This document shows positions 17,895 to 46,291 of a DNA stretch of 64,000 nucleotides, in pieces. The notes beneath the pieces are model-generated. The model made no database searches. It was not told the origin of the DNA and saw nothing but the letters and a program-made list of their open reading frames with translations. The DNA is taken from NCBI GenBank assembly GCA_044892525.1, contig CM097885.1, positions 33,172,001 through 33,236,000 on the forward strand, read 5' to 3'. This DNA is from Schmidtea polychroa (taxonomy: Eukaryota). Each line of letters starts with the position of its first letter. The stretch's first letter is position 1. Position numbers and translations under genes: made by a program.

Positions 17895-17943
<49 letters not shown>

Positions 17944-18445: not shown

Positions 18446-18576
<131 letters not shown>

Positions 18577-20145: not shown

Positions 20146-20476
20146 AGTAGTGAGGAATCTATGCACCCCAGCACCCCCACCCTCAAAAAAAAACAGCGCT
20201 ATTGACCCATATTTTCCACATTTATATGCTTTTTTACCCCATATTCTTCACTTTTTTTAACTTTTAAACTTTGTCCCCTATTGCCATTAACCCTTAATTT
20301 CTTCCCTTAAAAGTAAAAAAGTTCGGAATAGATGTATTTATAGATTAGTAATTCCGAGAAAAGGTAACGGGGTGCATAGATTCCTCACTACTTGGTCTTA
20401 AGGATTTAATGTTAAAAGGATTTAATGTTATAAGAATATCAGATTACCTAATTCATAATGATCTAGGTCGTCTGAT
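20146..20476 (+). repeat. Left TIR of the inner Polinton
   Basis: Reverse complement of 34857-35167, plus one extra 16-bp duplication near 20400. Confidence 0.9.
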
Positions 20477-20552
20477 CACTTTTAGATTTAAAAAAAATAA
20501 AAATTAATATCAAAACCAAAACATCGTATCCAACCAAAAAATTCTTTTAAAA

Positions 20553-24946: not shown

Positions 24947-24970
24947 GAATTAGAATTTTAACACTATAAA

Positions 24971-25525: not shown

Positions 25526-25619
25526 AACCAACGATATTTAATTTTTTAATAATAAAATGTCGACAATTAATTTAAGCAGCTATAGCAACCTGATCTACTT
25601 TTTTAAAAATACACCCATT

Positions 25620-26216
25620 TTATAAGTAAGAATTCTTTAACCATTTTTCTCGAGATGTTTTTTTATTACTTATAACATTAGCCACCATGCCCTCCCTTTT
25701 TAATCTTATAACCTCATTCTTTATATCTTGTATTATTTGATTTGATTTCATTATTTCTTCGTCTGTCAGGATTCCATCTTCCAAAGCTTTTAATTGAAAT
25801 AAAAATAATTTAGAGATTCCTAATTCTATTGATAAACAAACTTCTCTATATAAACTTTTCTTTTTAGAAGTATAAGATAATGAAACTATTTCAGTTAAGA
25901 AACCATCAGCCACAGAAATACTTCCAAGTATTACAGGTGCAAGAGTAACAACTGGTAAAGTTATGGGTAAAATAACTGTTAATATTGCAGATGCAAATCC
26001 TAAAGAATAACCTATAACTTTTAAAACTGTATTCCCTTTATTCCATCTATTTTTAATTTTTTTATAATGCTTTAATAAATCTTGTAAATGTAAGGTTTCT
26101 GATTTAAATTCATTTACTCTCATAATTTCAAGTTCTGTGGGAGCCGAGGCCTTGGAAGAATAATATCCTGATGATCTCAATTCTGGGTAAATTTTTTCTT
26201 CTCTTACTTCTTCCAT
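25620..26216 (-). CDS. Polinton membrane-associated protein (hydrophobic hairpin; resembles the adintovirus GasderminX class)
   Basis: Central hydrophobic segment VIGYSLGFASAILTVILPITLPVVTLAPVILG and motif KALEDGILTDEEI; family assignment from recall only. Confidence 0.55.
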   Translation of the reverse strand: MEEVREEKIYPELRSSGYYSSKASAPTELEIMRVNEFKSETLHLQDLLKHYKKIKNRWNKGNTVLKVIGYSLGFASAILTVILPITLPVVTLAPVILGSISVADGFLTEIVSLSYTSKKKSLYREVCLSIELGISKLFLFQLKALEDGILTDEEIMKSNQIIQDIKNEVIRLKREGMVANVISNKKTSREKWLKNSYL

Positions 26217-26224
26217 TTTAATAA

Positions 26225-27234
26225 TTAAAAAAATAAGACTTTATTCTTCTGAGCACCATCTGGTACCAATACTCGGATATCAAAAGAAACTCTTATTGAG
26301 AGGATGTCTTTATACAATTCTCTCAATGCTTTACGAACTTCATCAACATCAACCTTTTTTTCATAAAATATTAAATCTATATATTGTACAAGTGAACTAG
26401 AAAAATGAATATTCTTACTTTTAACTTTATGTAGTCCATGTGAATGAGTATTAACATACCAATCTCCGTGTGGTAAATCATAACTAGTCATTATAACATC
26501 ACCCTTTTCAAGCTTACTATTATAATCACATTTCACAAACCATTTCATTCTTTCATTATCATCATCAAACAAAAAGAAATAAGGATCAATAATTTTTACA
26601 ACCATAAAAACACCCCATTCTTTACTGTTTGTTGTTATTAAACTTGGTTCTATAAAATGTTTATATGTATTGGGTAATAATGTTTTATTCTGTTCTAATT
26701 AGCAGCTCTTTTTCTAATACTATGTGTGGTGTTATTGTGTGTTCCATGAGACTCTAAATTTGAAATTCTTTTATTAAATGATGTAATCATCTCATTTATT
26801 ATATTATATATTGCATTAAATTTAGTATTCATAATTTGTTTATCTTTAGAATTTAATATAGCAGTATTTAACTTTACAACTTGTTCAGTTAACAGACTTT
26901 GTAACTTGTCAAATTTATCATTAAATCGTTGTTCGATATTATTAAGCTTTGATTCCATTGAATCAATTTTTGTTGTTAATGAACTTTCAATTCTTGTTGT
27001 TGTTAAATCAGTATATTTTTTAACACCATCTACATATTTCTTATTAACTGCATCAGCTTCATCAGTTGGAAAAGATAATTCTTTTATCTTGTGTCCATTT
27101 AAAATTAAATCACCCTTCATTGAATCACCTCTTTCATTAATATATTTATTTTCTGTTTAAGTTAATATTTCTTCTGTATTAAACCCTGTTTTTATTGTTC
27201 CACCACCTCTATTACATGGAATATAAGAACTCAT
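26225..27234 (-). pseudogene. Putative fibre/spike-like protein (one in-frame stop near 27158, one frameshift near 26700)
   Basis: ATG at 27234; YINERGDSMKGDLILNGHKIKEL..P....DAVNKKYVD fibre-type repeat, then coiled coil; a shifted frame (LEQNKTLLPN...EWGVF) runs into ORF 26225-26605. Confidence 0.55.
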
Positions 27235-27274
27235 TTATTAATAATTTAAAATGGACGGAGTCCCCTGAGAGGAA

Positions 27275-28039
27275 CTAAACCTGTTTCAAATGTAAATACA
27301 TTGAAATCTCTTCTCCATTAAAATCAATCAATTCTCCTTCTTGATTAAGAATTTTAAAATTAATATCCATTATATATTTTCTACATAAAGGTAAATAATT
27401 TGGAGGATTCATTCTTTCAACTATTTTATATCCCATAGGAACTGTGTTTGAGGGAAAGGAATATAAAACATTTGTTTGTTTACCATTATTATAAGAACCT
27501 GTTATACAATCGCAATGAATATTTATTGTGTTTGTATTTATTATTTTTATAATATGTTCTGATGTTATTATTTTATCTTCTTTTATTGTTATATCCATAG
27601 GTTTAAATCCTAAAACTGTGTGAAAGAAACAATTATCTAAAAAACTAATTTTTATATTCTTCAAAGTCATTACACATTTTGAAGTTGGTATATCCATTTT
27701 AATTTTAATACCTTCATTTGTTTTTTTAGAAAGTATATCATTTAAATCTTTTATCTCATATGCCCCAGGTTCTATTGTTATAATTTCTGGTTTATGCCCA
27801 TCACGAGTTTGAATAGTAAATTTATTATTATCTTTAGTTATATTAAAAATAGTATTATAAGCACAAAACCATAATAGCCCCAATTCATAATTTAAATTTT
27901 GATCTAATTTAATTGAATCTTGAAAGTTTATAGTAAACTCTGATTCTTTTGAATTTATAGATAAAGTTCTTGAATATTTATCTGACATTATGTTTACCAT
28001 TTTTTTTAAATTATCTTCCGGAGGGTTGTGAAGCTCCAT
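27275..28039 (-). CDS. Minor capsid protein (penton, single jelly roll)
   Basis: INIHCDCITGSYNNG...VLYSF...YLPL...ILNQEGELIDFNGE...LHLK pattern of Polinton mCP; 254 aa. Confidence 0.85.
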   Translation of the reverse strand: MELHNPPEDNLKKMVNIMSDKYSRTLSINSKESEFTINFQDSIKLDQNLNYELGLLWFCAYNTIFNITKDNNKFTIQTRDGHKPEIITIEPGAYEIKDLNDILSKKTNEGIKIKMDIPTSKCVMTLKNIKISFLDNCFFHTVLGFKPMDITIKEDKIITSEHIIKIINTNTINIHCDCITGSYNNGKQTNVLYSFPSNTVPMGYKIVERMNPPNYLPLCRKYIMDINFKILNQEGELIDFNGEEISMYLHLKQV

Positions 28040-28087
28040 TTCTTTAGTAGTAAATTCATATAGTAAAAATCCTTATAGTAAAAATCC

Positions 28088-28552
28088 TTATAGTAGAGAT
28101 TCTAGATCATTATAAATTTCTTGAATTATAGATTTAAAATCCTGCGTATGCCCCTTTCCCTCTCCCTTATTCAATCTATACAAAACATATAAACTTAAAA
28201 TACCACATATTTTAGTATTCAAAGGTTGAACTTGTAAAGAGTTAAAAGTATAACCATTTGGGGAATCAATCGGAGAACCCCTCAAGAGATAATCTTCAAC
28301 TTCTTTAGTAGGTTTAATCCCAAAAGAATCAAAGTAGATAGATTTCTTATATATACAAACCCAATGAGATCCTTTTTTATTTGAATTTTGATAATTGATT
28401 ATTATATTCAGGGGACTCTCCAGACTTGATAATTCATCATTCATTAATATTTTAATTTTTAAATTTAAATAATTTGCATAATCTTTTAAATCAAAATTTG
28501 TTTTTGCATTTATTCCAAATGTTTTTAAAAAATCTAATATTGAAGGAGTCAT
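28088..28552 (-). CDS. Adenain-like cysteine (maturation) protease
   Basis: GSHWVC, YFDSFG, Q...ICG catalytic H/D/Q/C. Confidence 0.9.
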   Translation of the reverse strand: MTPSILDFLKTFGINAKTNFDLKDYANYLNLKIKILMNDELSSLESPLNIIINYQNSNKKGSHWVCIYKKSIYFDSFGIKPTKEVEDYLLRGSPIDSPNGYTFNSLQVQPLNTKICGILSLYVLYRLNKGEGKGHTQDFKSIIQEIYNDLESLL

Positions 28553-28574
28553 TTTGTATTTTAAAACTTCGTAT

Positions 28575-29489
28575 TTATAACTTCGTATACTTATTAAATT
28601 TATCTTTTGAAATTATTCCTTGTTTTAACAAATCTTTAGAAATCTTTAAAATATCAGAATCTAAATTATTATGTCCTGCTTTCCTTGCAGCTAATAGTTT
28701 TCTTAATTCAATAAAAAGATTGATGGGATTTGGTTTACCACCTTCACTAATTAATCCCTCTCCCTCTGTAACAACATAACCCTTTTCATTTTTATTTAAA
28801 TAATTCTTTAAATCTTGAATATATTTTGCTTTAGAACTAGCTCTTATTAATCTTATTAAATTTAAATATTTTTTAATTTCTTCAACATCATCTGAAGAAT
28901 ATCCACAAAGTAATCTATAAAAATCATCTGTAAATTCAAAGTCTAAATATTCATTATTATAAACATTTTGTGAATGAATACGTGATTTATTTTCTGAATT
29001 TGAATATAAAGTAAAGTTTTGTTTATTAATTGTTATTATTTGATATCCTTCAGTATTAGTATTAAATGTGGGTCTAATTGAAGGAGGTAAATCATCTCTA
29101 ATTTTAGGATCAACTTTAAGAGGTTTTGTTTTTAAAAACATTTCTTCTTCTTCCACATTAGAAATTCTTCTGCGTTTTCTTTGATTTCTTTCAGGATGGT
29201 TTTCACTGGATTCTTTTTCTTTATCCTGCCACTCTAGTTCTTTTATTTTTTGTTTTTTATCTTCTAACTCTTTAAATTTTGCTTGCTCATTGAAATCTTC
29301 CAACTCTTTTATAGCTTTAATTGTTGGCCCCTGTTGTTGTGTTATTACCTCATTTAATATTATAGATTCAGCATGTTGAGTTGTATCTTTTTTATTATAT
29401 TTATCTTGTTCTGATTGTAATTTTTTTAAAAGTGCTAATCTTTCTTCATATACCATTTTAATGGTATCAAAAATGGTATCATAGTTCAA
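28575..29489 (-). CDS. Conserved-type Polinton hypothetical protein
   Basis: 304-aa ORF with coiled coil, NLS-like RKRRR, GEGL motif and C-terminal LLAARKAGHNN..DI...L motif recalled from Polinton ORFs. Confidence 0.6.
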   Translation of the reverse strand: MNYDTIFDTIKMVYEERLALLKKLQSEQDKYNKKDTTQHAESIILNEVITQQQGPTIKAIKELEDFNEQAKFKELEDKKQKIKELEWQDKEKESSENHPERNQRKRRRISNVEEEEMFLKTKPLKVDPKIRDDLPPSIRPTFNTNTEGYQIITINKQNFTLYSNSENKSRIHSQNVYNNEYLDFEFTDDFYRLLCGYSSDDVEEIKKYLNLIRLIRASSKAKYIQDLKNYLNKNEKGYVVTEGEGLISEGGKPNPINLFIELRKLLAARKAGHNNLDSDILKISKDLLKQGIISKDKFNKYTKL

Positions 29490-29564
29490 AGGGCTTCAAG
29501 TATAATCCTTTACCATTTTTAGTTTTACAAAGGCATCCATTCTTTAAAGATTTACATATTTTTT

Positions 29565-29957
29565 TTAAATCTTCTTTATCTTTTGCCGACTCCCCTCATA
29601 TGGATTAAGATAGAGACCCTTTCCAACGGACACTCCCCCTTTAGCTTGCCCTACCTTCTTCATTGAATCGATTTCAGTTTGTAGTTTTTCTTTTTCTAGG
29701 TCTGTCTTTTGAGATTCTTTAGCTTTTTGAACTGTAGTTGCAATTCCTCCAGCTATTCCAGCAGCACCTGATAAACCAGCAATGATTGCAGGTATTAAAG
29801 CAGCTAATGGAAGAATGCCACCTTCTTTAGCTTCGTGGAGCTTCGCTCTAACTTGTTCTTTTATATGTTTTCCAATAAAATATTTTTTACCATCAATTAC
29901 TACTGATTTATTTTTATTTGAATTTATTAATTCTTGTAAAGATTCTTCAGTTGTCAT
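29565..29957 (-). CDS. Putative virion core protein, adenovirus pX-like
   Basis: EGGILPLAALIPAIIAGLSGAAGIAGGIA resembles adenovirus pX GGFLPALIPIIAAAIG; GKGLYL motif; ATG at 29957. Confidence 0.6.
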   Translation of the reverse strand: MTTEESLQELINSNKNKSVVIDGKKYFIGKHIKEQVRAKLHEAKEGGILPLAALIPAIIAGLSGAAGIAGGIATTVQKAKESQKTDLEKEKLQTEIDSMKKVGQAKGGVSVGKGLYLNPYEGSRQKIKKI

Positions 29958-29973
29958 TTTATAATAAATAAAA

Positions 29974-30755
29974 ATGGATACTTGGAAACCAATTTTAAAT
30001 AGACATAAGAGTAAATTCAATAATAAAGTATTTCCTGATAATTTTAGATTATTAATTGTTGGTTCTTCTGGATGTGGAAAGAATGTACTTGTTTTGAGAA
30101 TGTTACTTGAAGATGATTTTTTAGATTATAATAATTTAATCTTTTATTCTACAACCATAAATCAACCAGAATTACAACTTTTGAAATGTGGATTTGAAAA
30201 TAAATTAACTAAAAAAGCAATAATTGATATTTTTAAAAATCAACATAGGTGTCCTGAAGAAGTTTTTCAACTTTGTGATATGGTTGATTGGTATAAGGAA
30301 AAGATTTTAGAATCAGATATTAGTAATAAAAATGATTATATTTGTGAAGAAGGGCAGGAGGCAATTCAAGTTTTATTCTCTAATAAACCTGAAGATGTTT
30401 TACATTGTGATTTACTTCCTAAAGATAAAAAGAATCTAGTTATATTTGATGATGTTGTTAATATGAAAAATCAAGAGATTCAAAAGAGTTACTTTACACG
30501 AGGTCGACATAATAATTGTAATGTTATTTATATATCTCAAACATATTATGCTTTAGATAAAAATTCAATAAGAAATAATTCCAATTGTTTTATATTTTTT
30601 AAATTAGATCGCCGTGATAAGAATATGATTTATTTTCAAATGTTGAACCTGATAAGAATATGTTTGATATGTTTGTTGATAATCATTGGAAAGAAAAATA
30701 TAATTATATTTATTTGGATAGAGAAGAAGCTGAAATATGGAAAAGTTTGTTTTAG
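29974..30755 (+). CDS. A32/FtsK-HerA-like DNA packaging ATPase; frameshift near 30635
   Basis: Walker A GSSGCGKN, Walker B LVIFDD, RGRH..CNVIYISQ; shifted frame gives ...HWKEKYNYIYLD... ending at TAG 30755, which removes the overlap with the integrase. Confidence 0.88.
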
Positions 30756-30766
30756 GGCTTGTCGAC

Positions 30767-32152
30767 TTAAAAATCTGTTTTCTGTAGTTCATTATTATAA
30801 AATCTACCTAATATTTTTTCATTATTTAAATCAAAGATGCTATATGTTATTGGAGTTGTATAATTTATTTTATTTATAATAAAAATTTCATTTGTCCATT
30901 TTGCTGTGAATCCTTTTTCAAATTTATTTTTATATTTAAATATTCTTACTCGGTCACCAATTTTAAACTTTGGTTTTTCAATAACATCATTTTCAATATT
31001 TACCACTTTAATGGTTTCAGGCTTCATGGAAGCATTTAAAGGTGTTAATTTTATAGAACTATGTACATCATTATTATATTCATTTACAATCTTTTGTAAC
31101 AATTCATTGTTCCATTTTTGTTTTCCAATAGCAGTAAAATATTTCCACATTTTATTTTTTAATGTTCTATTTAATCTTTCAACTACGACTGCTTTTCCTT
31201 CGTTTTCTGTTGAATATAATTTAATATCATTTTCATTTAAAAACTTTGTAAAAACTTTGTTATAAAATTCTGTTCCTTTATCACACCATAAATATTTTGG
31301 GATTCTTTGATTTTCTTCAAATATATTTTCAAATGCTTCTGTAATAGAATATCCTGTTTTATTTTCTAAACACCTTGCAAAAGCAAATCTTGTATATAAA
31401 TCTATTACAGTTAAAATTATTTTATATTTTTCAGGGTCTGATGATTTGGGCATAAAGACTAAATCTGCAGACCATGTTTGATCTTTTTCATGTACTTGAA
31501 CTTTTAAATATTTTTTATTTTTTCTAAATTCATGGTGTAATTCCTTTGCATATTTTATTTCTGATTCTGTTGGGGTTTGTAAACTAGTCTTGGCTGTACT
31601 CTCGAGGGATCTTTCAATCTCTGCTTGTTCGATAATCTTTTTATAAGCAACATCTTTTGCTATTCTAGGAAGTCTTGCACCCATGGTGATCGGACTGTGT
31701 CCTAAGCCTATGAAAATCTTACCTTTCATTGCTAATTTAACTAGAGCTCTTTGAATCTTTTCTTGGGTTGATGGATTTTGGATACTATTTAAATCATGTA
31801 TTAAATTCACATCTGCAACATGTCTATCTCTAAGATTTGTTGAATTGTATGCAATGTCATGTTTTAAAGCTGCTTGATCAATTCTATTTATTTGTTCTTC
31901 TCCTTGTTTGGGATTATTATTTTCATCTAATCTAATATCTAATCTTGTTCCTGGTCCGGTGTAGTTGTGTTTAAATAAATGTCTTTCACCTGGATATTTT
32001 TCTGTAGTAAAAGGTTTTAATATTGAAGATGTTGTTTTTGAAGATTGTAGATCGCCTCCTGTATGTTTTTTAGTTTTTAAATGACTTGCTTTATGATGTC
32101 TTGTAACTTGACAATTACAAGTTTCACATCTCCAATATTTATTTAGAGACAT
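30767..32152 (-). CDS. int: Retroviral-like DDE integrase fused to an N-terminal Zn finger and a parvovirus-type PLA2 domain
   Basis: WSADL, WCDKGTEF, VERLNRTLK (D,D,E); C-terminal KFKIGDRVRI..KG...W; N-terminal NYTGPG...IDQAALKHDIAY...AD. Confidence 0.92.
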   Translation of the reverse strand: MSLNKYWRCETCNCQVTRHHKASHLKTKKHTGGDLQSSKTTSSILKPFTTEKYPGERHLFKHNYTGPGTRLDIRLDENNNPKQGEEQINRIDQAALKHDIAYNSTNLRDRHVADVNLIHDLNSIQNPSTQEKIQRALVKLAMKGKIFIGLGHSPITMGARLPRIAKDVAYKKIIEQAEIERSLESTAKTSLQTPTESEIKYAKELHHEFRKNKKYLKVQVHEKDQTWSADLVFMPKSSDPEKYKIILTVIDLYTRFAFARCLENKTGYSITEAFENIFEENQRIPKYLWCDKGTEFYNKVFTKFLNENDIKLYSTENEGKAVVVERLNRTLKNKMWKYFTAIGKQKWNNELLQKIVNEYNNDVHSSIKLTPLNASMKPETIKVVNIENDVIEKPKFKIGDRVRIFKYKNKFEKGFTAKWTNEIFIINKINYTTPITYSIFDLNNEKILGRFYNNELQKTDF

Positions 32153-32181
32153 TTTAAAATGTTAAAATATCAGGGATTATA

Positions 32182-33472
32182 TTAAGAATCTCCCCTAACA
32201 TTTTCGATTATTGAAATCTTTCCACCATATAATTTCATTTCTATTTTCTTTTCTTCTAATATTAATGTATATACTTTAGCTTTAAAATTAGAATCCTTTG
32301 TTACATGAAGTGTAACATCAACATTATTTATGGCTAGGCGATCATCTTGGTCTGAAACATTTATACAAAATATAAAATATAAATTTTTGAAATCTTCTAA
32401 ACTTAATTGCGGTTCAACTTTGAAATCATAACATGTTTCAATATAATTTAGATATGGGAATATGTTTTCATTATTTTCAATATTAAATTCCATTCTATTT
32501 ATTGGATAATAAGAACTATTTAATTGAATTTGTATTGTTTTTAAATTATCATCTCCAATCTTTTGAATAAATAGATTGTTATTTTTTTGGAAAGATGAAT
32601 CTACTTCTTTGAATCCAATCAAGATATATCTTGGTCGGTATGCTAAATTTGCTACCTTTATAGAATATGTTGAACCCTCTGTCATACTAAATTCACTACA
32701 GATTCTATTTAAATAATTTGTTGGAATACTTGTTGGAATTTAATCTTTCAAGGAGTTTAATCTCAGAATGTGGGTTTAATGTCCATTCAGGTATATGTAA
32801 TTCAAGTGTTGATAATTTTAATTTAGCTTTTGTATCTACAGCTCCATAGAACAATCTTTTATCACCTTCTACTCTATTACAGATGAATTCTATAAAAACA
32901 TTATGAAGTATACGATTATAGTTTTGAAGGAATCCAAACAAGTGTTTTAATTCAAAATAACCTTCAAATTTTTTAGATTTATAAAGTTCAGCTCTTTTAT
33001 GGTAACCATGGTTTACATCTAAACCATCTTTATCTAAATCCCCTTTATTAACATCAGGTATCCAACCTGTTAATTCACCATATTCGTTTTTATAATCACA
33101 ACCAGTCAAAATAAAATTTAACATTGTAGAATATACTCCCGGATGCAAAACAGTTTCAATTTCTGATGATCCTAGTTTTAATCTCATGTTGGAGAATAAA
33201 TTTGGAAAGAAATTATTTTCTAGGGTTATATCTTTGTTTGCTTCAATTTCTAATTCTACTTTGTAATATAATTTGGCATTACAAATATCTATTGGGTTTG
33301 ATGTTTGAAGAGATTGAAAAACTATATCACCCCTACGATTTAAGTTTGCAATAGATCCTGAAGTTGGAGAGATTTTTAAAATATCATTTTTTTTAATTTC
33401 ATGAGTAAATTCTTTATTATAATCAAGATTTAATTTATTTTTTTCTTGAATTTTAAGATTTATATTATTCAT
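32182..33472 (-). CDS. Major capsid protein (double jelly roll), split by a frameshift near 32730
   Basis: ORFs of 255 and 167 aa join via shifted frame IPTNYLNRICSEFS to ~430 aa; LENNF..NLF, L..LFGF..Y.RI, PRYILIGF motifs. Confidence 0.8.
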
Positions 33473-33528
33473 TTTTATATATTAAAATTTACACACACAA
33501 AATAGGATTAATTAAATATATTATGTAA

Positions 33529-33610
33529 GCCATTATAGCGGAGTGGGAATAGGCTTCAATTTTATCACCGGGAGTACCGGGTTCAATTTTCGATTTTGGT
33601 CAATTTTTTT
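33529..33610 (+). ncRNA. tRNA-like Pol III cassette 1
   Basis: A-box TAGCGGAGTGG, degenerate B-box GGTTCAATT, partial acceptor stem, T7 terminator. Confidence 0.4.
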
Positions 33611-33762
33611 CGATATTTTGTTTTCAACGGAATCTGATTCAGCGTACTGATTTTAGTATATATTTAAATTTTCAGATCGATCTGAGTGGTAGTTGTCGAG
33701 AAAATGAATAATTAATTATTAATTTCATCAATAAATAGTCACACATTAACAACTTATTTTAT

Positions 33763-33845
33763 ATTGAGTATAGCTTAGTGGTAATAGCACTCGACTGCAT
33801 TGCCAATACCAATGGGTTCAAATCCCATTTCGGTCATTTGTTTTC
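33763..33845 (+). ncRNA. tRNA-like Pol III cassette 2 (5' half resembles tRNA-Cys)
   Basis: A-box TAGCTTAGTGG, D-stem, GACTGCA, perfect T-arm ATGGG-TTCAAAT-CCCAT, T-runs downstream; anticodon stem does not pair. Confidence 0.55.
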
Positions 33846-34001
33846 AAATTTTTTTTAACGAAATATTGATCAGCATACTCGATTTAGTACTTGTACAAAT
33901 TTTTAAGGAGATTGGTCAACGGCAACTCTTGGAAATTTAAGATCAAAAACGTTTTAACTACCAAAAATTAATATATCCAATAAAAAAAAATATTTATAAA
34001 A

Positions 34002-34298
34002 ATGGATGAGTTAAAAGAAAGAATGAGAAATGAATTGAATGAAGTTAAACATAAGAGAATGAAAAGAAGAGAAGAAGAACCATTAGAATACATCAAAGAG
34101 TTGATGGTAGATAATGAAAAGTATCGACATTTTTATATGAAGGCTGTAGATGTTGCTGATATAAGATTGAAGAAAATGAAACAATTACAGGAAAGAGTTA
34201 AAGAACTTGAATCGATTATTTATAGTCTAAAAAATGACAAAAATTCAAACCTTGATGGCGCAGTGGGAATAGACTGGCACAGTGGTTCAAATGGATAG
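34002..34298 (+). CDS. Small coiled-coil hypothetical protein, 98 aa
   Basis: ATG in an AAAATG context like other genes of the element; charged helical sequence. Confidence 0.5.
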   Translation: MDELKERMRNELNEVKHKRMKRREEEPLEYIKELMVDNEKYRHFYMKAVDVADIRLKKMKQLQERVKELESIIYSLKNDKNSNLDGAVGIDWHSGSNG

Positions 34299-34331
34299 TG
34301 GTTCAAATCACATCTGAGGTTAGTTTTTTTT
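34248..34331 (+). ncRNA. tRNA-like Pol III cassette 3
   Basis: A-box TGGCGCAGTGG, B-box GGTTCAAATC, acceptor-like stem AACCTT/GAGGTT, T8 terminator. Confidence 0.5.
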
Positions 34332-34494
34332 CAACATAAAATAATATTAAAAATTTGAAAATAATATTGAAAATAGTGTGGGTATCTTATATTTATAAAG
34401 TACTTGTATATTTTATTTTATTTATTTTATTTTATTTTATTTTTTTATTAATTAATTATTTTTTAAACATAAATATGAAAAAAAAATATTGAAA

Positions 34495-34578
34495 CGGGTG
34501 ATGGTGGCGAACCGGTAATTATCGCCACCTGTCTTTCGAACACCCCCGGATCGATTCCGGTAATGTGCACATTTATTT
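34495..34578 (+). ncRNA. Structured Pol III-like cassette 4
   Basis: Hairpin GGTGGCGA...TCGCCACC containing A-box-like TGGCGAACCGG; T-arm-like CCGGA-TCGAT-TCCGG with B-box GATCGATTC. Confidence 0.35.
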
Positions 34579-34856
34579 CTCAGTTGTTTTCGGACCTCTT
34601 TCGGATTCGCTTTCGAATTCATTTGTACTTTCGAGCAGCACACTTAAAACGCCGATGAAATCGTATTCGAGCGAGAAGCGAATAATAAGGTGTGCTGCTA
34701 TTATCGAATTGATTCTGATGTATGAGTCTGGCCAGCTTGTATATTGGAAGAGATTCGATAAACGAAAGAGGTTGATTAAAAAAAAAATGTCCTCTCAGAG
34801 CAGTTTTACTATTTCATAAAATTTTTTATTTTTAAAACTTTCAAAACCTTAAGGTA

Positions 34857-35167
34857 ATCAGGCGACCTAGATCATTATGAATTAGGTAATCTGATATTCT
34901 TATAACATTAAATCCTTAAGACCAAGTAGTAGGGAATCTATGCACCCCGTTACCTTTTCTCGGAATTACTAATCTATAAATACATCTATTCCGAACTTTT
35001 TTACTTTTAAGGGAAGAAATTAAGGGTTAATGGCAATAGGGGACAAAGTTTAAAAGTTAAAAAAAGTGAAGAATATGGGGTAAAAAAGCATATAAATGTG
35101 GAAAATATGGGTCAATAGCGCTGTTTTTTTTGAGGGTGGGGGTGCTGGGGTGCATAGATTCCTCACT
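34857..35167 (-). repeat. Right TIR of the inner Polinton
   Basis: Reverse complement of 20149-20476. Confidence 0.9.
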
Positions 35168-37043
35168 CGGAAGATTTTGGCTAAGAGCCCAACCATATAA
35201 ATTATTTATATCTATATACAAAGGTTCTGTATCTTCAGAACTTGCTACATAATGTTTGTTAACAAATGTTAACCCGCCCCGTATTCCACCTTCGTAGAAA
35301 TTATACATTTCCATATCCTGTAGAACTTCTATAGGTTCCTGTAATGTCATGAGTGCTGACGCCCATGACATACCTGGAATTCCATAGAAGTTTAGAGGTT
35401 CAAGGCCGTTATAAGCAATTGCTTTGGCACGGAATTGCTGAAAATAATCTGCCAAGAGGAATACGTCCAATTTAAGGTACGTTAACATATAGTCTAACAT
35501 TGTTTCGCAATTTTGCTGAACCTAGATTTCTTGGGCGATAGCATATTCTTCATTAGATACAGAACTCCAAATCGGAGGTAATTCATGAGTAGATTCAAGA
35601 ATTTCGAGTGATGTTGCAAAGTTGTAAGGAAATATGCCCTTTGCTCTCACAATACTACCATCAAAAACAGAAGAAGTTAAAGGTAAATCTGAAAGAGTTT
35701 TAACTGCCTTTGCTAACGATGAGTTAACAAATTGCATACTGTCGATAAAACGAACAGTCAATTTGTTAATATTTACAATCAAGGATATAAATTTTTCAGT
35801 GGTGGTTGGAATGATATTTAATTTCCAAGATGGAAAATCATTCAAACCATACTTTAAAATGTGATGTAAGTCATACCCCTTCAAATTATGAAAGACAATG
35901 GGTAACTGTTTGTTTATTCTCCTAGAAATATTGCAATTTCGACAGGCAGCACCAAGATACTTACCTGTGAAATGATCATGGTCCTTAACCTTATCTTTTA
36001 TAAAATGTTTACAGAGATAACAAGTCCTACAGTTGTTGAACTCCCGTTCCTCATTGAAAGACAGAGTATTAATGAATTTTCTACCATGAATTTCATAATA
36101 CGGGAGGACAATTGTGACAGCAATTTCCTCCACCTTCTTTAAAAATTCAAAAACACATTCCAAGCCTATAAAATTAAAATATGATGTTGTGTTAGTGTAA
36201 TTGTTAATTAATAATAGACCTGCTGTTATCGGCTTGTGTATTTGGTGATGATTTATATCCCCAGGTAAAATAGCCTCAAAGTCTGCGTATATTACGAACG
36301 GTGGAGTAATCATCTTTGAATAATCTTTAAACGTTAAATTTTTATTTTTAGGGAGCGTGTAAAGGGTGGTTCCTATTTGATTTTTAGCGCACAATGCAAC
36401 ATGTACCTTAAAGGTTTTGACCCGATAAAAACCATTTAAACAATGAGGGCACCATCTAACTCTAATTCTAGTATTACATTCGACGGTTGAATGACCATTC
36501 ATTAATCGGTTTAAATTAAAAATTGCGGTGTAATGATAATTATCACCGTCTTGTAAGAGTAAAAGATTAATAGGATTCCCTTCGGTAACCTTAGATCTAT
36601 GAATTATATTTAGGTGTGGATGATGAGGTACATAATCTATATCATTATTTATTTTATTCCCTGTTATTGTAGGTTTATATTCAAAAACATTGATTGCCAA
36701 TTTTAAATCTATGTTATTTCTTTCAAATTTCGGGATGTTGCATAACCTCATTGGGCAATCAGTAATGGGATCATAATTTAGTTCGTCTAAGTAATTAGTA
36801 TAATTGGAAACACGCTCCCTATGATTTAAAATTATATCACGCTTTAATAGTGATAAAACACTATATATAAAACAAGCATGATCATTGTTTCTTACGTTTA
36901 CAATTGCTTTCTTTTTATATATTGCCGCTGGTGTAGGTATAAAACTATGCCCAGCTAATCGACTTATAGGGTAAAATGTGGTCAAAATAAAATCAAGTTC
37001 CTTAATCTTTACAACCCTCCATCCGCTACCTAAATAAGTAAAT
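35168..37043 (-). pseudogene. Left-arm pPolB copy, N-terminal/exonuclease part (5'-truncated at FTYLGSGW)
   Basis: Near-identical to 40694-42569, including the TAG at 35522-35524. Confidence 0.9.
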
Positions 37044-37057
37044 GAATTTGTTGAAAT

Positions 37058-37357
37058 GAATTTGTTGGAGTTTTTCCTCTTGATAAAATTCCATATTTGA
37101 GCAATAATCAAGCCATAATCGTCAATACTCAATCGTCTCATCTTGGTGGAGAACACTGGATAGCTATATATATGAAACCTGGTAATATATTCGTGTTCGA
37201 TCCTATGGGTTTCTATTATCCTGCTTTGTTGATATCAAAACTGCAAACAATGGGGAAACCTATTGTGTATAATAAAACTATGTTTCAAAATCCCTTGACT
37301 CAAACATGTGGTCATCACTGTTTGGCGTGGTTGTTGTACAAAAGGTTTCATGTTTAA
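37058..37357 (+). pseudogene. 5'-truncated adenain-like protease of the outer element
   Basis: EFVGVFPLDKIP...IIVNT...GEHWIA...FVFDPMG...FQ...TCGHHC; start lost at the arm junction. Confidence 0.85.
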
Positions 37358-37619
37358 TAAATGTTTAGTGTATGCTTTGTTGTTGTTATTTAATAAGAAA
37401 GACTTTTATTATTATTATTTGTTATTTAATAAGAAAGACTTTAATTTTATTATTTATTGTTATTATTAAGAATAATATTAATTATTTTTAATTAACTTAT
37501 TACATATCATAAAGCCATCACATGCTCCGTGCATGCACAGTGCATGTTAACAAAGAACTGACTAATAAAGACAGTCACATGGAAACAGTATGATTAACAA
37601 GGCATGTGTAGATGCAATA

Positions 37620-37712
37620 TGATTGGTTGAGAGAGGAAAATTCTAATTTACTATGCGCGTGTGTCTAATTCTGATTGGCTGGGACAGGAAAGTTTTCATT
37701 CTCTTTATAAAC
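37620..37712 (+). promoter_or_regulatory. Pol II promoter of the spliced gene
   Basis: Two inverted CCAAT boxes (GATTGG at ~37621 and ~37673), each followed by AGGAA; TATAAA at ~37706; ATG at 37759. Confidence 0.5.
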
Positions 37713-37758
37713 ATTTGCAATTTCCAAATTCGTCACAATTATTTTAAAATTTTACAAA

Positions 37759-38455
37759 ATGGAAGGAGAAGGAAATAATATTTTAAGATGTATGATGGCT
37801 GGCGATAATGGTATATTATTTATTTTTATTTTATTTATTTTTATATATTTATTTTGTAGATGATTTATGGTACCAGGTGACCGAGAACGAAAATGGCTTT
37901 AATTTAAATTGCACATATGGTAATTTTATTTTTATTTATTAATATTATTATTATTATTATTTAGACGTTATAATGGTGAGCGATGAGGAAGATGAATTAA
38001 TAATTATTAGTGATGATGAAGAGGAATCTCCAATTATTATTAATGATCACAACTTATCAGGTAAATTATTATTATTATTATTAGTTAATTTAAAAAAAAA
38101 ACTGTTTTAGGAAAAAGTCAAAGAGAAAATTCCCCCAATCTTGTTGAAGAAACTGAAAATATATTAGGTGCCATGATTGAATATACACGTAAATTTTTAT
38201 TATTATTATATGTAATTTTTAAAAATTGATTTAGAAAGTTCAATTATTTTGGAAGATATATATGATCCTATTATGGATGAGCTATATGCCCCTATTAATG
38301 TTGATGCCCCGGAAATTGCTGATGCTCCAGAAACTATATTATTTAATGCTCCTATTCAGGATGCCCCCATGCGGGATGATTTCGATGCCCCCACTTTAAC
38401 TGGGGATGACCTCTCTGAGGATGATACAGATTCAGATTCTGAATCTAAATGTTAG
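37759..38455 (+). CDS. Five-exon acidic protein (168 aa) with tandem SUMO-interacting-like motifs
   Basis: Exons 37759-37810, 37860-37919, 37965-38060, 38111-38188, 38235-38455; four GT-AG introns of 49/45/50/46 nt, all phase 1; the spliced 507 nt is an uninterrupted ORF. Confidence 0.8.
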
Positions 38456-38574
38456 TTTTTATTTATTTTATAAATATTTATTTTAATAATTTATTTTACT
38501 AATTTATTAAATTAAAAATAACATTCTCTAGATTATTTAAATTATTTATAACTTAAATTATTTCAAACATAAAA

Positions 38575-38700
38575 TTTTATATGAAAATATCGAAGAAATG
38601 ATGAAATTTATATGAAAAATGATGAAAATTATATGAAATTAATGATGAAAAATGCCGAAATTTATATGAAAAATGATGAAAATTATATGAAATTAATGAT
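38575..38700. repeat. Short tandem repeats (ATATGAAAAATGATGAAAATT-type)
   Basis: Read directly. Confidence 0.7.
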
Positions 38701-38741
38701 TCTAACTAATCTAGAGAATGTTATCTTTATTTAAGTTTAGA

Positions 38742-38778
<37 letters not shown>

Positions 38779-38780
38779 TT

Positions 38781-38828
38781 GCCCCCATATCTAATGTATG
38801 TTGCAGTGAGCATGCGACTACATCTCTT

Positions 38829-38898
<70 letters not shown>

Positions 38899-39112
38899 TT
38901 GCCCCCCCCCCATATCTAATGTAGCTTGCAGTGAGCATGCATCTATCTACATCTCTTCTCATATAATAATAATAATAATAATGACCCCAAATAAATGTAG
39001 CTTGCAGTGAGCATGCATCTACATCTCTTCTCATAAAATAATAATAATTATCCCAATAAAAGTAGTTTGCAGTGGACATGCATCTACATCTCTTCTCAAA
39101 TAAAAATACTAC

Positions 39113-39191
<79 letters not shown>

Positions 39192-39230
39192 TTATATCTT
39201 TTACATAGTTAGCATTCAGCATGCGACTAC
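38781..39230. repeat. Array of five imperfect palindromes separated by (AAT)n spacers
   Basis: Consensus ATGTAGYTTGCAGTGAGCATGCATCTACAT at ~38793, 38918, 38994, 39061, with a degenerate copy at ~39205. Confidence 0.8.
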
Positions 39231-39490
39231 CAACCTATGATATTAATAATATTAATAATAATTCATATGATTCATTTTAGTTTACAATTACCAATTTCAG
39301 ATTATTTTACAATTATTAATATTTATTTCATTTTTACCGTTTTTTATTTTTTTTTTATTAGAAATGAAATAAATATCAATAACTGTTATAGATTTATAAC
39401 AATAAATATATAGATATTTTATGTAAATTATATGAGTCTGTAATAAAATGTATTAATTAATGTTATTGTTGAACAAATACAATAGAAATG

Positions 39491-39576
<86 letters not shown>

Positions 39577-39619
39577 AAGCTTTAGATTGTAATTTATTTA
39601 TTTTTTAAAAATTTATTAG

Positions 39620-39870
39620 GTAAACTATATCAACGATATTTTCAATCCTCAATTGGACATAGCTCTGCATGCCATAAAGTACTGAAGCTTTACTATGGTC
39701 ATAGATTCTATGGCACCAACTTTTTTATTTGCCTCAAATGCGAAACTGCTCAAGATTTAAAATACATAGATTTTTATAAGGGGCACTACACCCATTTAAA
39801 TCAATTTGTATTGAATAAAAAGACCCTTTTTAATATAATTTATGCGAAAACTAATGAGATTAATAATACA

Positions 39871-39947
<77 letters not shown>

Positions 39948-42900
39948 TAATAACAATAATAACAGAAATAATAGAAATAATAATACAAATAACAGAAATA
40001 ATAATACAAATAACCGAAATAATACAAATAACCGAAATAATACAAACAATAATAATCCAAATAATATAAATAATAATACAAATAACCGAAATAATACAAA
40101 CAATAATAATCCAAATAATGGAAATAGTACAAATAATAATATTACAAATAATGAAATATTAATAATATAAATAATAGAAATATAGATAATACAAATAATA
40201 ATACAAATAATAATAATAATAATACAAATAATAATACAAATAATCGAAATAATAAAAAATCTAAAAGACCTGCTGTAAATACTGTTCCGTGTATCCCTAC
40301 TAAAATTATAAAATTATCAATCATCGTGATAAATGATGATGAATCTGAATTATTAAATACCCAAATAGGGGGTTCGATAAACAATATAGAAAATATTCAA
40401 ATAGATATAAATGATGAACCTGAAATAGAGATAGATTTAAAGGGTTCCCGTAAAAATATTCGATTTGATTTAGAACATAAAAACTTAATTCAAATCTCCC
40501 TTACGGATAAAATTATAAATAAAATTAATGTGGAAATTGAAAAGATGGGATCTGTAAAAGTCCAGTTTACAGTTCTTATTCAATTTGAAAAAGATGGAGA
40601 AATTAAAGATAATTTCTTTTCAAATAGAGCGAGTGTTTTTTCCAACAATTTTCTTATCGATGGTGTGAGTCGATTAAATGAGAAAATTGAAAAATTTACT
40701 TATTTAGGTAGCGGATGGAGGGTTGTAAAGATTAAGGAACTTGATTTTATTTTGACCACATTTTACCCTATAAGTCGATTAGCTGGGCATAGTTTTATAC
40801 CTACACCAGCGGCAATATATAAAAAGAAAGCAATTGTAAACGTAAGAAACAATGATCATGCTTGTTTTATATATAGTGTTTTATCACTATTAAAGCGTGA
40901 TATAATTTTAAATCATAGGGAGCGTGTTTCCAATTATACTAATTACTTAGACGAACTAAATTATGATCCCATTACTGATTGCCCAATGAGGTTATGCAAC
41001 ATCCCGAAATTTGAAAGAAATAACATAGATTTAAAATTGGCAATCAATGTTTTTGAATATAAACCTACAATAACAGGGAATAAAATAAATAATGATATAG
41101 ATTATGTACCTCATCATCCACACCTAAATATAATTCATAGATCTAAGGTTACCGAAGGGAATCCTATTAATCTTTTACTCTTACAAGACGGTGATAATTA
41201 TCATTACACCGCAATTTTTAATTTAAACCGATTAATGAATGGTCATTCAACCGTCGAATGTAATACTAGAATTAGAGTTAGATGGTGCCCTCATTGTTTA
41301 AATGGTTTTTATCGGGTCAAAACCTTTAAGGTACATGTTGCATTGTGCGCTAAAAATCAAATAGGAACCACCCTTTACACGCTCCCTAAAAATAAAAATT
41401 TAACGTTTAAAGATTATTCAAAGATGATTACTCCACCGTTCGTAATATACGCAGACTTTGAGGCTATTTTACCTGGGGATATAAATCATCACCAAATACA
41501 CAAGCCGATAACAGCAGGTCTATTATTAATTAACAATTACACTAACACAACATCATATTTTAATTTTATAGGCTTGGAATGTGTTTTTGAATTTTTAAAG
41601 AAGGTGGAGGAAATTGCTGTCACAATTGTCCTCCCGTATTATGAAATTCATGGTAGAAAATTCATTAATACTCTGTCTTTCAATGAGGAACGGGAGTTCA
41701 ACAACTGTAGGACTTGTTATCTCTGTAAACATTTTATAAAAGATAAGGTTAAGGACCATGATCATTTCACAGGTAAGTATCTTGGTGCTGCCTGTAGAAA
41801 TTGCAATATTTCTAGGAGAATAAACAAACAGTTACCCATTGTCTTTCATAATTTGAAGGGGTATGACTTACATCACATTTTAAAGTATGGTTTGATTGAT
41901 TTTCCATCTTGGAAATTAAATATCATTCCAACCACCACTGAAAAATTTATATCCTTGATTGTAAATATTAACAAATTGACTGTTCGTTTTATCGACAGTA
42001 TGCAATTTGTTAACTCATCGTTAGCAAAGGCAGTTAAAACTCTTTCAGATTTACCTTTAACTTCTTCTGTTTTTGATGGTAGTATTGTGAGAGCAAAGGG
42101 CATATTTCCTTACAACTTTGCAACATCACTCGAAATTCTTGAATCTACTCATGAATTACCTCCGATTTGGAGTTCTGTATCTAATGAAGAATATGCTATC
42201 GCCCAAGAAATCTAGGTTCAGCAAAATTGCGAAACAATGTTAGACTATATGTTAACGTACCTTAAATTGGACGTATTCCTCTTGGCAGATTATTTTCAGC
42301 AATTCCGTGCCAAAGCAATTGCTTATAACGGCCTTGAACCTCTAAACTTCTATGGAATTCCAGGTATGTCATGGGCGTCAGCACTCATGACATTACAGGA
42401 ACCTATAGAAGTTCTACAGGATATGGAAATGTATAATTTCTACGAAGGTGGAATACGGGGCGGGTTAACATTTGTTAACAAACATTATGTAGCAAGTTCT
42501 GAAGATACAGAACCTTTGTATATAGATATAAATAATTTATATGGTTGGGCTCTTAGCCAAAATCTTCCGTATGGTGACTTTGTTTGGGTGTATGAAAATC
42601 TGAATGATGTGTTGAGTGAATGCGTGAATGCAGATATTGAAAACCTTCCATATAGTTATACTATGGAAGTAGACATCAATATCCCTAATCGTGTGCATGA
42701 ATATTTGAATGATTTTCCGCTTGCTCCGGAAAAAATGTGTCCACTTAATTCAAAGGTTGAGAAGCTTATGCTCACGCATTGGCCTAAGAAGAACCATGTT
42801 CTTCATTGGCGGTTTCTCAAGCTGTATATAGAATTAGGTGCGGAAGTTGAGCATGTACATAGAGCAATTAAATTTAAACAATCAACAATTTTCAAAACAT

Positions 42901-43856
42901 ATATAGATCGAAATACTAATTTACGTTCAAAATCAACATGTGAACTGCATTGAGATCTATATAAATTATTCAATAATAGTCTCTATGGTAAATCAGTAGA
43001 GAATTTGAAAAAACGTATGAATTTGAGGCTATGCAATTCATCAGCAAAGATGATTGTATACGCCTCCAAACCAACTTTCAAAAAATCAATTAAAATAGCG
43101 GATGATCTGATTGCGATTCATCTTAATAAAGATATTATATGTTTAGACAGGCCTAGCTACATAGGCCAATCAGTGCTAGACCTGTCTAAACTACGCATGT
43201 ATCAACTGCAATATAATGAATTGACAAAATATAGATCCGAATTCTTATGTGATATAAATATCGTTGCCGGCGATACTGATTCGTTTTTTCTTGAGGTTAA
43301 GCACTGTAAGCTAGACACTCTTTTGCCGGCAATGATAAGAGATAATCTTCTAGATACCTCTAATTATGATCCCGCACACCCCTTATACTCGAGAAACCTT
43401 GATTCTGTGATAGGAAAATTTAAAGATGAAAGCAAAGGTCTCGGGTATAAGGAATGGGTTTTCTTAAGACCTAAGTGCTATAGTTTATTAGGTGTCAAAG
43501 ATACTATGAGGGCTAAAGGGGTGAAATTAATGGGGACAGAGATTGGGCACCAGTCATATTTAGACTGCTACAATAACAACGTAGAATTTGCAGTGCCGCA
43601 AACTAGGATAGGGACGCGGAACCACCAGCTATATACCATCAAAATTAGTAAAATCGCATTGACAAATAACGATGACAAGCGATTATGGGTGGGGAGAAAT
43701 AATAGTATCGCATTTGGGCATTATTTTGGGGTTGATGCTGTAGATAGTGATCAAGTATTGGATGAAGTTGGACCGCTCTCTGTAGGTTTCAGTCCAGATT
43801 TCGATGAAAGTCATCACATATTAGAGGAAGTTGGACCGCTTAGTTTTCAAATTTAA
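39620..43856 (+). pseudogene. polB: Right-arm pPolB of the outer element (Asn-rich N-terminus, frameshift near 40155, in-frame stops at 42213 and 42951)
   Basis: GSGW, NNDHACF..HY, YADFEA, CYLC..DHDH..YLGAAC..CN, FHNLKGYD, YIDINNLYG, KLFNNSLYGK, AGDTDS, LRPK, DDKR; the three large ORFs are in one frame. Confidence 0.92.
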
Positions 43857-43958
43857 TCATTTTTAATAATTGTAATAATAACATCTTTTAATATGTGTAT
43901 TTTTATTATTATTTTGAAAACATGTGATAGTTTTCAAGTTTAAACATTTTTTAATAAA

Positions 43959-44036
<78 letters not shown>

Positions 44037-44471
44037 CTTGCGATATGTTGATTGTAACCAGCTATGTGGAGATTTCAGCCAAGATTTGGATGATAAGGAT
44101 CAAATATTGGATGATGTTCGACCGCTTTGTGGAGATTTCAACTCAGATTTCGATGATAGTATCGATATAGATGTTGATATTGATGATATATTATTAACTG
44201 ATAATGATAATGATGAATATTATTAAAAATATATCTTTTTTAAAAAAAAAAACTAGACTTCATGTGTTCATTTTTATTGGTGTATTAAAAACTTGTGATA
44301 GTTTTCAAGTTTAATCATTTTTAATAATCGTAATAATAACATCTTTTAATATTTGTATTTTTATTGTTATATTGAAAACTTGTGATAGTTTCAATTTTAT
44401 ACATTTTTAAATAATAATAATAATGATAATAATAATGATGTTAATAATAATAATAATAAAAATAAGTAATA

Positions 44472-44511
<40 letters not shown>

Positions 44512-44601
44512 CATTATGAGATGTTGAGTGTAACCAATACGGTTGTGAGCAATAACCATAAGGAGACAAAATATCTTGTCGGATAAACTCAGAGTATACC
44601 T

Positions 44602-44973
44602 TTGTTTGACGACAAACCAAAATGGTCAAAGCATCCAGGAAAAAGAATATCTCAAAGATTGGAGAATTTAGAAAACAGTTATGAACTATCATTTGCATAT
44701 ATACAAAATATAAAAATTAAATTGATCGATCATATTGAAGTTTTCAATAACTCTATTGTTGAAAATAAAAAGAATATGAAAATTATTGATAAGAAGCATG
44801 ATTATTTGTTAAAAAAGATCGAATTATTAGTAAGAGAAATTCAAACAAACAAAGGATCAATAGAATATCTGAAAATCAATTCAACGTTACCAATTTCAAA
44901 CAATATTGCTGCGAATACTAGTACATCAATATTTAGTTTACCTTTGCTAATTTTACATTATTTTATTGTTTAA
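44602..44973 (+). CDS. Coiled-coil ORF fragment with hydrophobic C-terminal tail, present in the right arm only
   Basis: 123-aa open frame without a clear ATG, followed by AATAAA; flanked by ~55-bp direct repeats. Confidence 0.35.
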   Translation: MFDDKPKWSKHPGKRISQRLENLENSYELSFAYIQNIKIKLIDHIEVFNNSIVENKKNMKIIDKKHDYLLKKIELLVREIQTNKGSIEYLKINSTLPISNNIAANTSTSIFSLPLLILHYFIV

Positions 44974-45092
44974 ATAAATGTATGTTTTGTTGATTTGTTT
45001 AATAATACCCTTGTGACTTGTTGAGTGTGAGCAGTACCCTTGTGAGCATTACCCATAGGGGGGACAAAATATTTTGTCGGATAAACTCGGAG

Positions 45093-45210
<118 letters not shown>

Positions 45211-45221
45211 TTACTAATAAT

Positions 45222-45279
<58 letters not shown>

Positions 45280-45466
45280 TTAATAATAATAATAATAGTG
45301 AGATGTTGAGTGTAACCAATATCATTGAACTCTTTGAAGGTTATTGAACCTCCATAGACCTTCGATGGTCTCAAATACTCACCATTCAAATACCTTTCGA
45401 ATGAGCTATTAAATAATAAAAACCATTGGCGGGAACTCTGAGAATTTAAATTTAAAAAAATTTAGC

Positions 45467-45623
45467 ATGACTCATCGGATGAGTCATATGACCTTGAATG
45501 AGGCATCGGATGAGTCATATGACCTTGAATGAGTCATCGGATGAGTCATCGGATGAGTCATATGACCTTGAATGAGTCATCGGATGAGTCATATGACCTT
45601 GAATGAGTCATAGGATGAGTCGT
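45467..45623. promoter_or_regulatory. Right-arm copy of the AP-1/TCAAGGTCA tandem array (9 perfect TGA(C/G)TCA)
   Basis: Reverse complement of 17595-17708 with a different copy number. Confidence 0.6.
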
Positions 45624-46291
45624 GGTCTTTGTTTCAATGACCTTGGTGAGTAATATGTCTTTGTTTAAAATTTGACCTTGAAAAAAAAATTTTTAATGGC
45701 GGGAGGTGTGGGGGTGGGGGTGGGGGGTATGTCTTTGTCCCAGGGGGCCGCTGGTTTAGTGGGCCGCTGGTTTAGTGGGCCGCTATCCCTCTACTTTCCT
45801 TCTTCATTTTTTGTTTAATATTTAAGAACGATATTGTCGTATTTCATTGTTTAATTTTAACTGAATCTCATTTTTCTTTGATTTTCAATTTCTTTTTAGT
45901 ACATTTTTGATTTTTAGAATTCTGGAACAACCCATCCTCCATTTCATATATTTCCCACCTGATATTTTATTCATTTAATAATTATTGTATTTTATTATTT
46001 AGGTATCCGCAATGAAACGAAATGTGACGACAAATTTTTCATGCTGCTTGTTGCGTTATCCAACGATATTCCTAGAAGTACCCGAAAGAGTCACCGTTAA
46101 AAAAAAGTATTGTGGCGGTACAATCGGGGTGCGTGTATGTATACAAATAATAAAATTATTATATATAAAAATAATAATGTATCACAATTAATAACTACAA
46201 TAGTTGTTACTAATAATTATTAATTAATATAGTCAAGTAATTAACCAACCTTGAGGTCCTTGGGAATTAGGTCCAACTTAGAAATTTAGAT

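Follow-up and report, generated by a model that had tools for sequence, protein, structure and literature searches.

Introduction

The core genes of intact vertebrate Mavericks are described as intronless in the part of the literature devoted to those elements (PMC8097293), and the introns of dinoflagellate elements have been attributed to introner insertions (PMC11957031). The polymerases (pPolB) of Polintons have been modelled as terminal protein-vOTU-polymerase precursors (10.1101/2024.03.18.585575). Binding of SUMO is associated with a separate feature, the SIM, which is a loose motif consisting of a four-residue hydrophobic core with Ser and acidic residues, and whose kinase is CK2 (PMC12751080). 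A spliced, SIM-bearing Polinton polymerase was not found in the portions of the literature we covered, including those of PMC12220804 and 10.64898/2026.07.28.741278; few subscription papers were within the scope of this search. Likewise, the same portions yielded no link between Polinton replication and SUMO.

Here we analyse a 64-kb stretch of DNA (the window) and propose that a conserved coding unit located between the protease and pPolB genes of a Maverick/Polinton clade encodes an acidic, probably SUMO-binding leader, which a predicted fifth intron (38451-39619) would join to the polymerase. We assign this reading a probability of roughly 0.6.

Results

A five-exon unit with four very short introns

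A first-pass annotation of the window had proposed a hidden gene with four GT-AG introns of 45 to 50 nucleotides, all in phase 1, and an intact frame of 168 amino acids, and splicing in silico bears this structure out. The exons and introns numbered here, and the protease part upstream of them, lie on the plus strand. Exon 1 (37759..37810) provides the ATG start and is followed by intron 1 (37811..37859, 49 nt), and exon 2 (37860..37919), which opens with the motif [DE][DN]LW[YF][QE]V, precedes intron 2 (37920..37964, 45 nt). Exon 3 (37965..38060) encodes two SIM-type motifs, VIMVSDEEDE (37967-37996) and LIIISDDEEE (37997-38026), and is separated by intron 3 (38061..38110, 50 nt) from exon 4 (38111..38188), which in turn is separated by intron 4 (38189..38234, 46 nt) from the acidic exon 5 (38235..38450). 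When joined, these exons form an open 168-amino-acid frame that contains 45 Asp or Glu residues versus 5 Lys or Arg. The exons and the frame are indeed intact, but the unit is not complete as annotated, as its final TGT-TAG overlaps a fifth donor at 38451.

The four short introns have GC contents of 4 to 10%, compared with 30 to 39% in the exons. When a strict filter for tiny introns (43-55 nt, GTA..AG, at least 88% AT) was applied to both strands of the window, 13 donors were recovered, and nowhere but in the acidic unit do at least three of them lie together. The CCAAT and TATA motifs reported upstream are also present, with the CCAAT boxes in reverse orientation. This promoter-like region (37622..37711, plus strand) includes ATTGG at 37622 and 37674 and TATAAA at 37706, and comparable motifs occur in all five of the other lineage representatives shown.

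The unit is conserved and under purifying selection

A search of genome DNA produced 40 main copies of the unit (40 scored among 1572 candidates). All four GT-AG pairs and the open frame are kept in 29 of these copies, and the remaining 11 carry a mutated splice site, a frameshift, a stop or a deletion. Between subfamilies A and B, dN/dS is 0.21-0.25 (Fisher p 6e-9 to 1e-6), and exon 2 has accumulated seven synonymous changes and no non-synonymous change. The short introns are free to vary in length, and exon differences between the subfamilies preserve the frame. A protein search based on exon 5 recovered roughly 100 strong matches together with weaker, diverged ones, and the pattern that marks the start of exon 2 is present at 174 places, extending into further lineages. 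Phase-1 tiny introns recur in gene models from these lineages, whose proteins are 29-56% identical to the window product (9 of 20 loci gave no complete model), and [DE][DN]LW[YF][QE]V is found in nine of nine lineage representatives. The five exons are therefore confirmed as a real, conserved coding unit under purifying selection, and the homologues that the annotation had suggested seeking in other Polintons exist in many copies and diverged lineages of this Maverick/Polinton clade. Outside it, no exon 5 homologue was found among longer proteins or in the Atlas, and homologue searches of metagenome and viral contigs were without result.

Two further observations concern the introns and the arrangement of the unit. 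The four short introns of subfamilies A and B vary mainly in length: in a comparison of 37811-38234 with locus L031, 1 of 163 aligned intron positions differs between the subfamilies, for which dS is about 0.45. At locus L082, a single pPolB is preceded by a tandem pair of leader genes that belong to different lineages, and both end in T|GTAAG.

The window carries a rearranged element

The unit resides in an outer element (17451..45795), a rearranged Maverick/Polinton with the 6-bp target duplication TTCCTT. A different Polinton (20147..35167, target duplication CGGAAG), whose pPolB has its own ATG, lies in the left arm of this outer element. In place of its left gene block, the outer element has a copy of the right arm that is inverted and lacks a promoter (pPolB from 40694 on), the integrase block is missing, and the adenovirus-type protease gene is represented by its 3′ part (37055..37357), which is cut at the inversion junction. 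A frameshift in an Asn-rich run near 40170 and stops at 42213 and 42951 disrupt the pPolB coding region of this copy, designated exon 6 (39620..43856). Immediately to the left of the outer element is an older, broken pPolB fragment (13954-15608, about 67% identity). The nesting of one element within another can be compared with that at L070:4070 onward, where the long intron has received a Polinton of the inner type.

Ordinary Maverick copies elsewhere are approximately 18-21 kb long with terminal repeats, which are seen in the window and in three of five mapped flanking regions. Their gene order is ATPase, integrase, presumed capsid genes, protease, acidic unit and pPolB. Pox_A32 and Peptidase_C5 exceed the Pfam cut-off, as does DNA_pol_B_2 in copy L046/L047, for which rve (E 4e-5) falls under the cut-off; the presumed capsid ORFs, which lack a capsid match in Pfam, take their name solely from their position. 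Ordinary copies also carry a Bcl-2-like ORF and a TBP-like ORF (L046:903-1241, 3335-3799), the former with a weak Pfam match and an adjoining 44-nt intron candidate.

The unit had been suggested to be cargo that favours the defective element and to be the only clearly intact gene of the outer element. Neither proposal is supported. A protease end lies upstream of the acidic unit in 40 of 40 loci, and among the 40 scored of 1150 candidates, the window alone gives a match across the inversion junction. Therefore, the unit belongs to the regular gene complement of the clade, and the rearranged window copy looks like a one-off. Rather than a sole surviving gene, the unit appears to be the front portion, still intact, of a polymerase gene that is otherwise broken.

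A predicted fifth intron would supply the start of the polymerase

The pPolB frame lacks a start codon of its own. A stop is located 3-17 codons ahead of the conserved start and no Met is reached before residue 8 or 21, although codons 1-20 are under constraint (pN 0.25, pS 0.69). In all 35 copies with a match (46 examined), the frame begins at a phase-1 YAG|G[T/C] acceptor. Of 40 further copies, 36 have YAG|GT and the other four have no acceptor within the fetched range. For the window copy, the predicted intron 5 (38451..39619, 1169 nt, phase 1) has the donor GTTAG and the acceptor TAG at 39617-39619.

Exon 6 begins with a Cys/His-rich, zinc-finger-like N-terminal domain of pPolB (39620..39831) that has no initial ATG, and the split codon T|GT would encode its first Cys. 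On the tree, the third base of this codon has undergone at least six switches involving T and C, and A or G never occurs there. This behaviour resembles that of a Cys codon and differs from that of conserved four-fold sites nearby, six of six of which include purines. A profile of the domain matched 35 outside proteins. Cys occupies the junction position in 21 of them (C-x4-7-C-x3-6-H), another 12 start within the domain and two are without that half; several start with Met-x-Cys. Given the restriction of the third base to T or C and the Cys in outside homologues, T is expected as the last base of the exon upstream. A G at +1 and T or C at +2 of the exon could partly reflect splice preference, although the acceptors of the short introns are followed by AT, AC, GA and AA, unlike the pPolB acceptor.

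Among the modelled genes, a T-ending phase-1 position was found only at the last position of the acidic frame. The ends of 113 acidic frames (one spurious match came up besides) read GTTAG in 106, GTAAG in six and GTATG in one. These frames never end in TGC or TAA, whereas 13 other ORFs of one copy, used as a control, end in TAA (8), TGA (4) and TAG (1). In the six GTAAG gene ends the stop is lost and the donor is retained. An ATG-led phase-1 mini-exon that might serve as a substitute is absent from 4 of the 15 long introns examined. From these sequence patterns, the last base of the leader very probably supplies the first Cys of the zinc-finger-like domain, and the five exons are likely to be the front end of the pPolB gene, joined to it by the predicted intron 5. 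This evidence favours a spliced polymerase leader over the stand-alone gene originally annotated, with the 168-amino-acid form as the intron-retained product.

Several other readings of exon 5 and pPolB were rejected. An 81-nt intron after exon 5 has an acceptor seen only in subfamilies A and B. Spliced-leader addition of an AUG in trans occurs in flatworms, but at the pPolB acceptor it would give the wrong reading frame, with a stop after 21 codons. A C-terminal PDZ-type motif (E-S-x-C*) is incompatible with the six gene ends that lose the stop and keep the donor. Finally, an apparent conserved stop inside pPolB proved to be an artefact of two separate queries.

Other comparisons concerned the N-terminal domain. 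A word search with the pPolB N-terminus gave no homologue, and the downstream Cys/His domain has no Pfam match. The 70 N-terminal residues of pPolB folded with a pLDDT of 69.5 in one of five models, and no match to this fold with E<=0.001 was found in PDB or BFVD, where the best rows were C2H2 fingers at E 0.9. The Atlas placed zinc-ribbon clusters at 0.92 with low shared features. We treat both results as leads only. None of the 35 outside homologues has an acidic leader ahead of the domain, and thus the leader is possibly limited to this clade.

Intron 5 of the window contains AAT/AT runs and short hairpin repeats at 38785-39110, and the long intron of several lineages carries repeated hairpins (ATGTAG...TGCA...TGCA...CTACAT). 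Among the outside proteins, P0015, P0016, P0019, P0029, P0030, P0033 and P0035 end soon after the Cys/His domain with Gly-Lys/Asn/Thr and a hydrophobic tail. Endings of the P0015 type resemble read-through into an intron and hint that polymerase starts may be spliced in other hosts as well.

Possible RNA reads

The annotation proposed junction reads at the four short introns as a check, and the outcome is mixed. Run X1, which is guessed to be RNA, contains one contig (contig 6, depth 5.6) that matches a subfamily-B copy and in which exons 1 and 4 lie 202 letters apart. In 73 genomic copies (40 plus 33 measured; 7 of 40 not measurable), this span is 271-305 letters. Subtraction of introns 1 and 2 from a copy of the L140/L152 type also leaves 202 letters. 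The same contig retains intron 4. Judged by length, contig 6 gives a weak hint of partly spliced transcripts from which introns 1 and 2 may have been removed. Contig 7 of X1 (38380-38559) crosses the fifth donor unspliced, and no read or contig spanning the intron 5 junction was seen in X1, or in X6 and X7, which provide little or no cover.

SIM-type motifs in the leader

The description of the product as a poly-SIM protein is supported as far as its two tandem SIM-type motifs go, in a unit under purifying selection; the third candidate, PIIIND, falls outside the SIM pattern. Two core-Ser-acidic units as in the window leader are reached by 0.4-0.6% of shuffles, with patterns that were partly fitted after the sequences had been viewed. 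Among 25 models, six have four SIM-type units, four have three, five have two, nine have one, and one (L097) has none by pattern. At least one unit is present in nine of nine lineage representatives, and the most numerous lineage sampled has one (shuffle p 0.07-0.12). Tandem duplication (L079 type) and the duplication of whole phase-1 exons (L091 type) account for the additional units. We consider it likely, from sequence, that the acidic leader binds host SUMO via one to four of these motifs.

The leader has a net charge of -31 to -43 and a length of approximately 80-175 amino acids. Its most strictly conserved stretch is LW[YF][QE]V, which is not a SIM. The 168-amino-acid window product contains three Cys and one His, too few for the RING of an RNF4-type STUbL. 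Exons 3 and 5 have no Pfam match, and a PDB sequence search with two SIM exons returned nothing for one and two chance WD40 rows (E 7) for the other. Two outside homologues carry IIISD or LVDLT right after the zinc domain, which is anecdotal.

We also looked for the host SUMO gene and did not find it. The matches of a Rad60-SLD search were of the ubiquitin type at the 13 places retrieved, and neither of two motif patterns produced more than chance matches. The genome contains at least 150 ubiquitin-like matches, many of them within extended open frames at scattered sites, which suggests a ubiquitin-carrying mobile family.

Discussion

Alternative readings

The motif evidence is open to a different interpretation, in which the same spliced leader is made but its hydrophobic-Ser-acidic units serve another partner, or an acidic shield, instead of SUMO. 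A transcription or repair factor might be bound, or an ATG8-type protein via the invariant acidic-W-x-x-V motif; in the shield version, the acidic leader would cover the basic zinc-finger and terminal-protein region. The presence of [DE][DN]LW[YF][QE]V in all nine representatives, the lack of non-synonymous change in exon 2 between subfamilies A and B, the strong negative charge (-31 to -43) and the many copies with a single SIM-type unit all fit such a function. However, the piece that has been duplicated repeatedly, up to four units, is the SIM-type unit, it matches the core, Ser and acidic pattern as given in PMC12751080, and SIM-like residues follow the zinc domain in the two outside homologues noted above, anecdotal as these are. 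We regard both versions of this alternative as unlikely. A role as an E1A-like 'Oncoid' that binds Rb is far less probable. Adintoviruses have such genes in the same location upstream of PolB, with acidic composition and CK2 sites, as described in PMC8502044, and the IMDELY stretch of subfamilies A and B is loosely CR1-like. This stretch is absent from other lineages, and neither LxCxE nor CR1, as (DEN)(LIMV)xx(LM)(FY) by the pattern of PMC8502044, occurs in any of the nine representatives. Therefore, the leader does not qualify as an Oncoid as that source uses the term.

A stand-alone 168-amino-acid SUMO decoy could instead be the main product, with pPolB started in some other way. The clean TAG closure of 106 of 113 gene ends, the X1 contig that is unspliced across the fifth donor and the unit's own CCAAT/TATA region are as such a decoy would predict. 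Set against these are a polymerase that lacks its own start and requires a phase-1 exon ending in T, the six gene ends in which the stop is lost and the donor kept, the lack of a conserved alternative first exon, and a defective copy that has not been amplified. On balance we find this decoy reading improbable. The reading to which we give next to no credence is that AT-rich repeats have been mistaken by chance for a gene. Although the region is of low complexity and no outside homologue of exon 5 was found, dN/dS is about 0.2, lengths vary in introns as the frame is kept in exons, and the structure recurs across lineages.

A proposed splicing-dependent polymerase

Under the preferred reading of a spliced, SUMO-binding polymerase leader, one promoter would drive both the leader and pPolB, and splicing of intron 5 would complete the first zinc-type Cys of the polymerase. 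The leader would then ride on the N-terminal, possibly cleaved, part of the pPolB precursor. We think it probable that CK2-phosphorylated SIMs bind SUMO and thereby bring the polymerase/terminal-protein precursor to nuclear sites rich in SUMO or to replication and repair proteins.

In most lineages a stop codon is part of the donor sequence, so that a transcript that retains intron 5 would encode a short, leader-only protein; in the window, exon 5 would then extend to the TAG at 38453-38455. By analogy, there is about an even chance that splicing thereby acts as an on/off switch for the polymerase. Because the polymerase part of the window copy is broken, only the short form could be made from it, and the decoy role originally suggested would survive solely as this intron-retained product. 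A broader and more doubtful proposal is that the clade places its polymerase under host splicing with a SUMO-reading leader, built of symmetric phase-1 exon modules in varying number, such that one transcript, through the stop in its last donor, yields either a polymerase guided by SUMO or a free competitor with multiple SIMs.

Annotation treats a Polinton polymerase as one open frame. If our reading is true, real polymerase N-termini may hide in tiny AT-rich exons that are missed by ORF-based annotation, and a splice event gates the replication of a high-copy endogenous virus-like element. A SUMO link is known for other nuclear DNA viruses, and the SIM array would be a direct, testable connection between Polinton replication and SUMO.

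Comparison with known systems

In adenoviruses, the upstream coding exon contributes only a few codons to pTP and Pol. These related replication proteins of the E2B unit are also expressed from spliced mRNAs with upstream exons, but they are separate proteins, whereas here a motif-bearing leader of 80-175 amino acids would sit on one polyprotein (PMC11304566, PMC7851563). The proposed switch can be likened to IVS3 of the Drosophila P element, a last intron whose retention gives a truncated product and whose splicing gives the active enzyme (PMC7776569). The proteins are unrelated, however, the regulation is a prediction in the present case, and the stop here lies inside the donor.

PML, DAXX, multi-SIM STUbLs and viral SIM proteins share with the leader tandem motifs in which Ser and acidic residues come after a V/I/L core of four residues (PMC12751080). 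Unlike the phospho-SIM proteins covered in that source, the leader is without a RING or other ligase domain, is attached to a DNA polymerase precursor, and has a predicted rather than demonstrated binding to SUMO (PMC12751080). The 'Oncoid' genes of adintoviruses have in common with it a position upstream of PolB, short linear motifs and CK2 sites, and both the sites and the position are present for the leader (PMC8502044). It differs from the Oncoids of that account in being without LxCxE or CR1, in being spliced, and in its likely fusion to pPolB (PMC8502044).

The element as a whole is closest to the protease-bearing type of animal Mavericks/Polintons (adintoviruses), with which it shares terminal inverted repeats and a 6-bp target duplication, as well as the adintovirus-type gene set of pPolB, integrase, packaging ATPase, protease and a Bcl-2-like accessory gene (PMC8502044, PMC8097293). 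It departs from the intact vertebrate Mavericks, as these are portrayed in PMC8097293, in that its pPolB has five predicted spliceosomal introns and an acidic leader.
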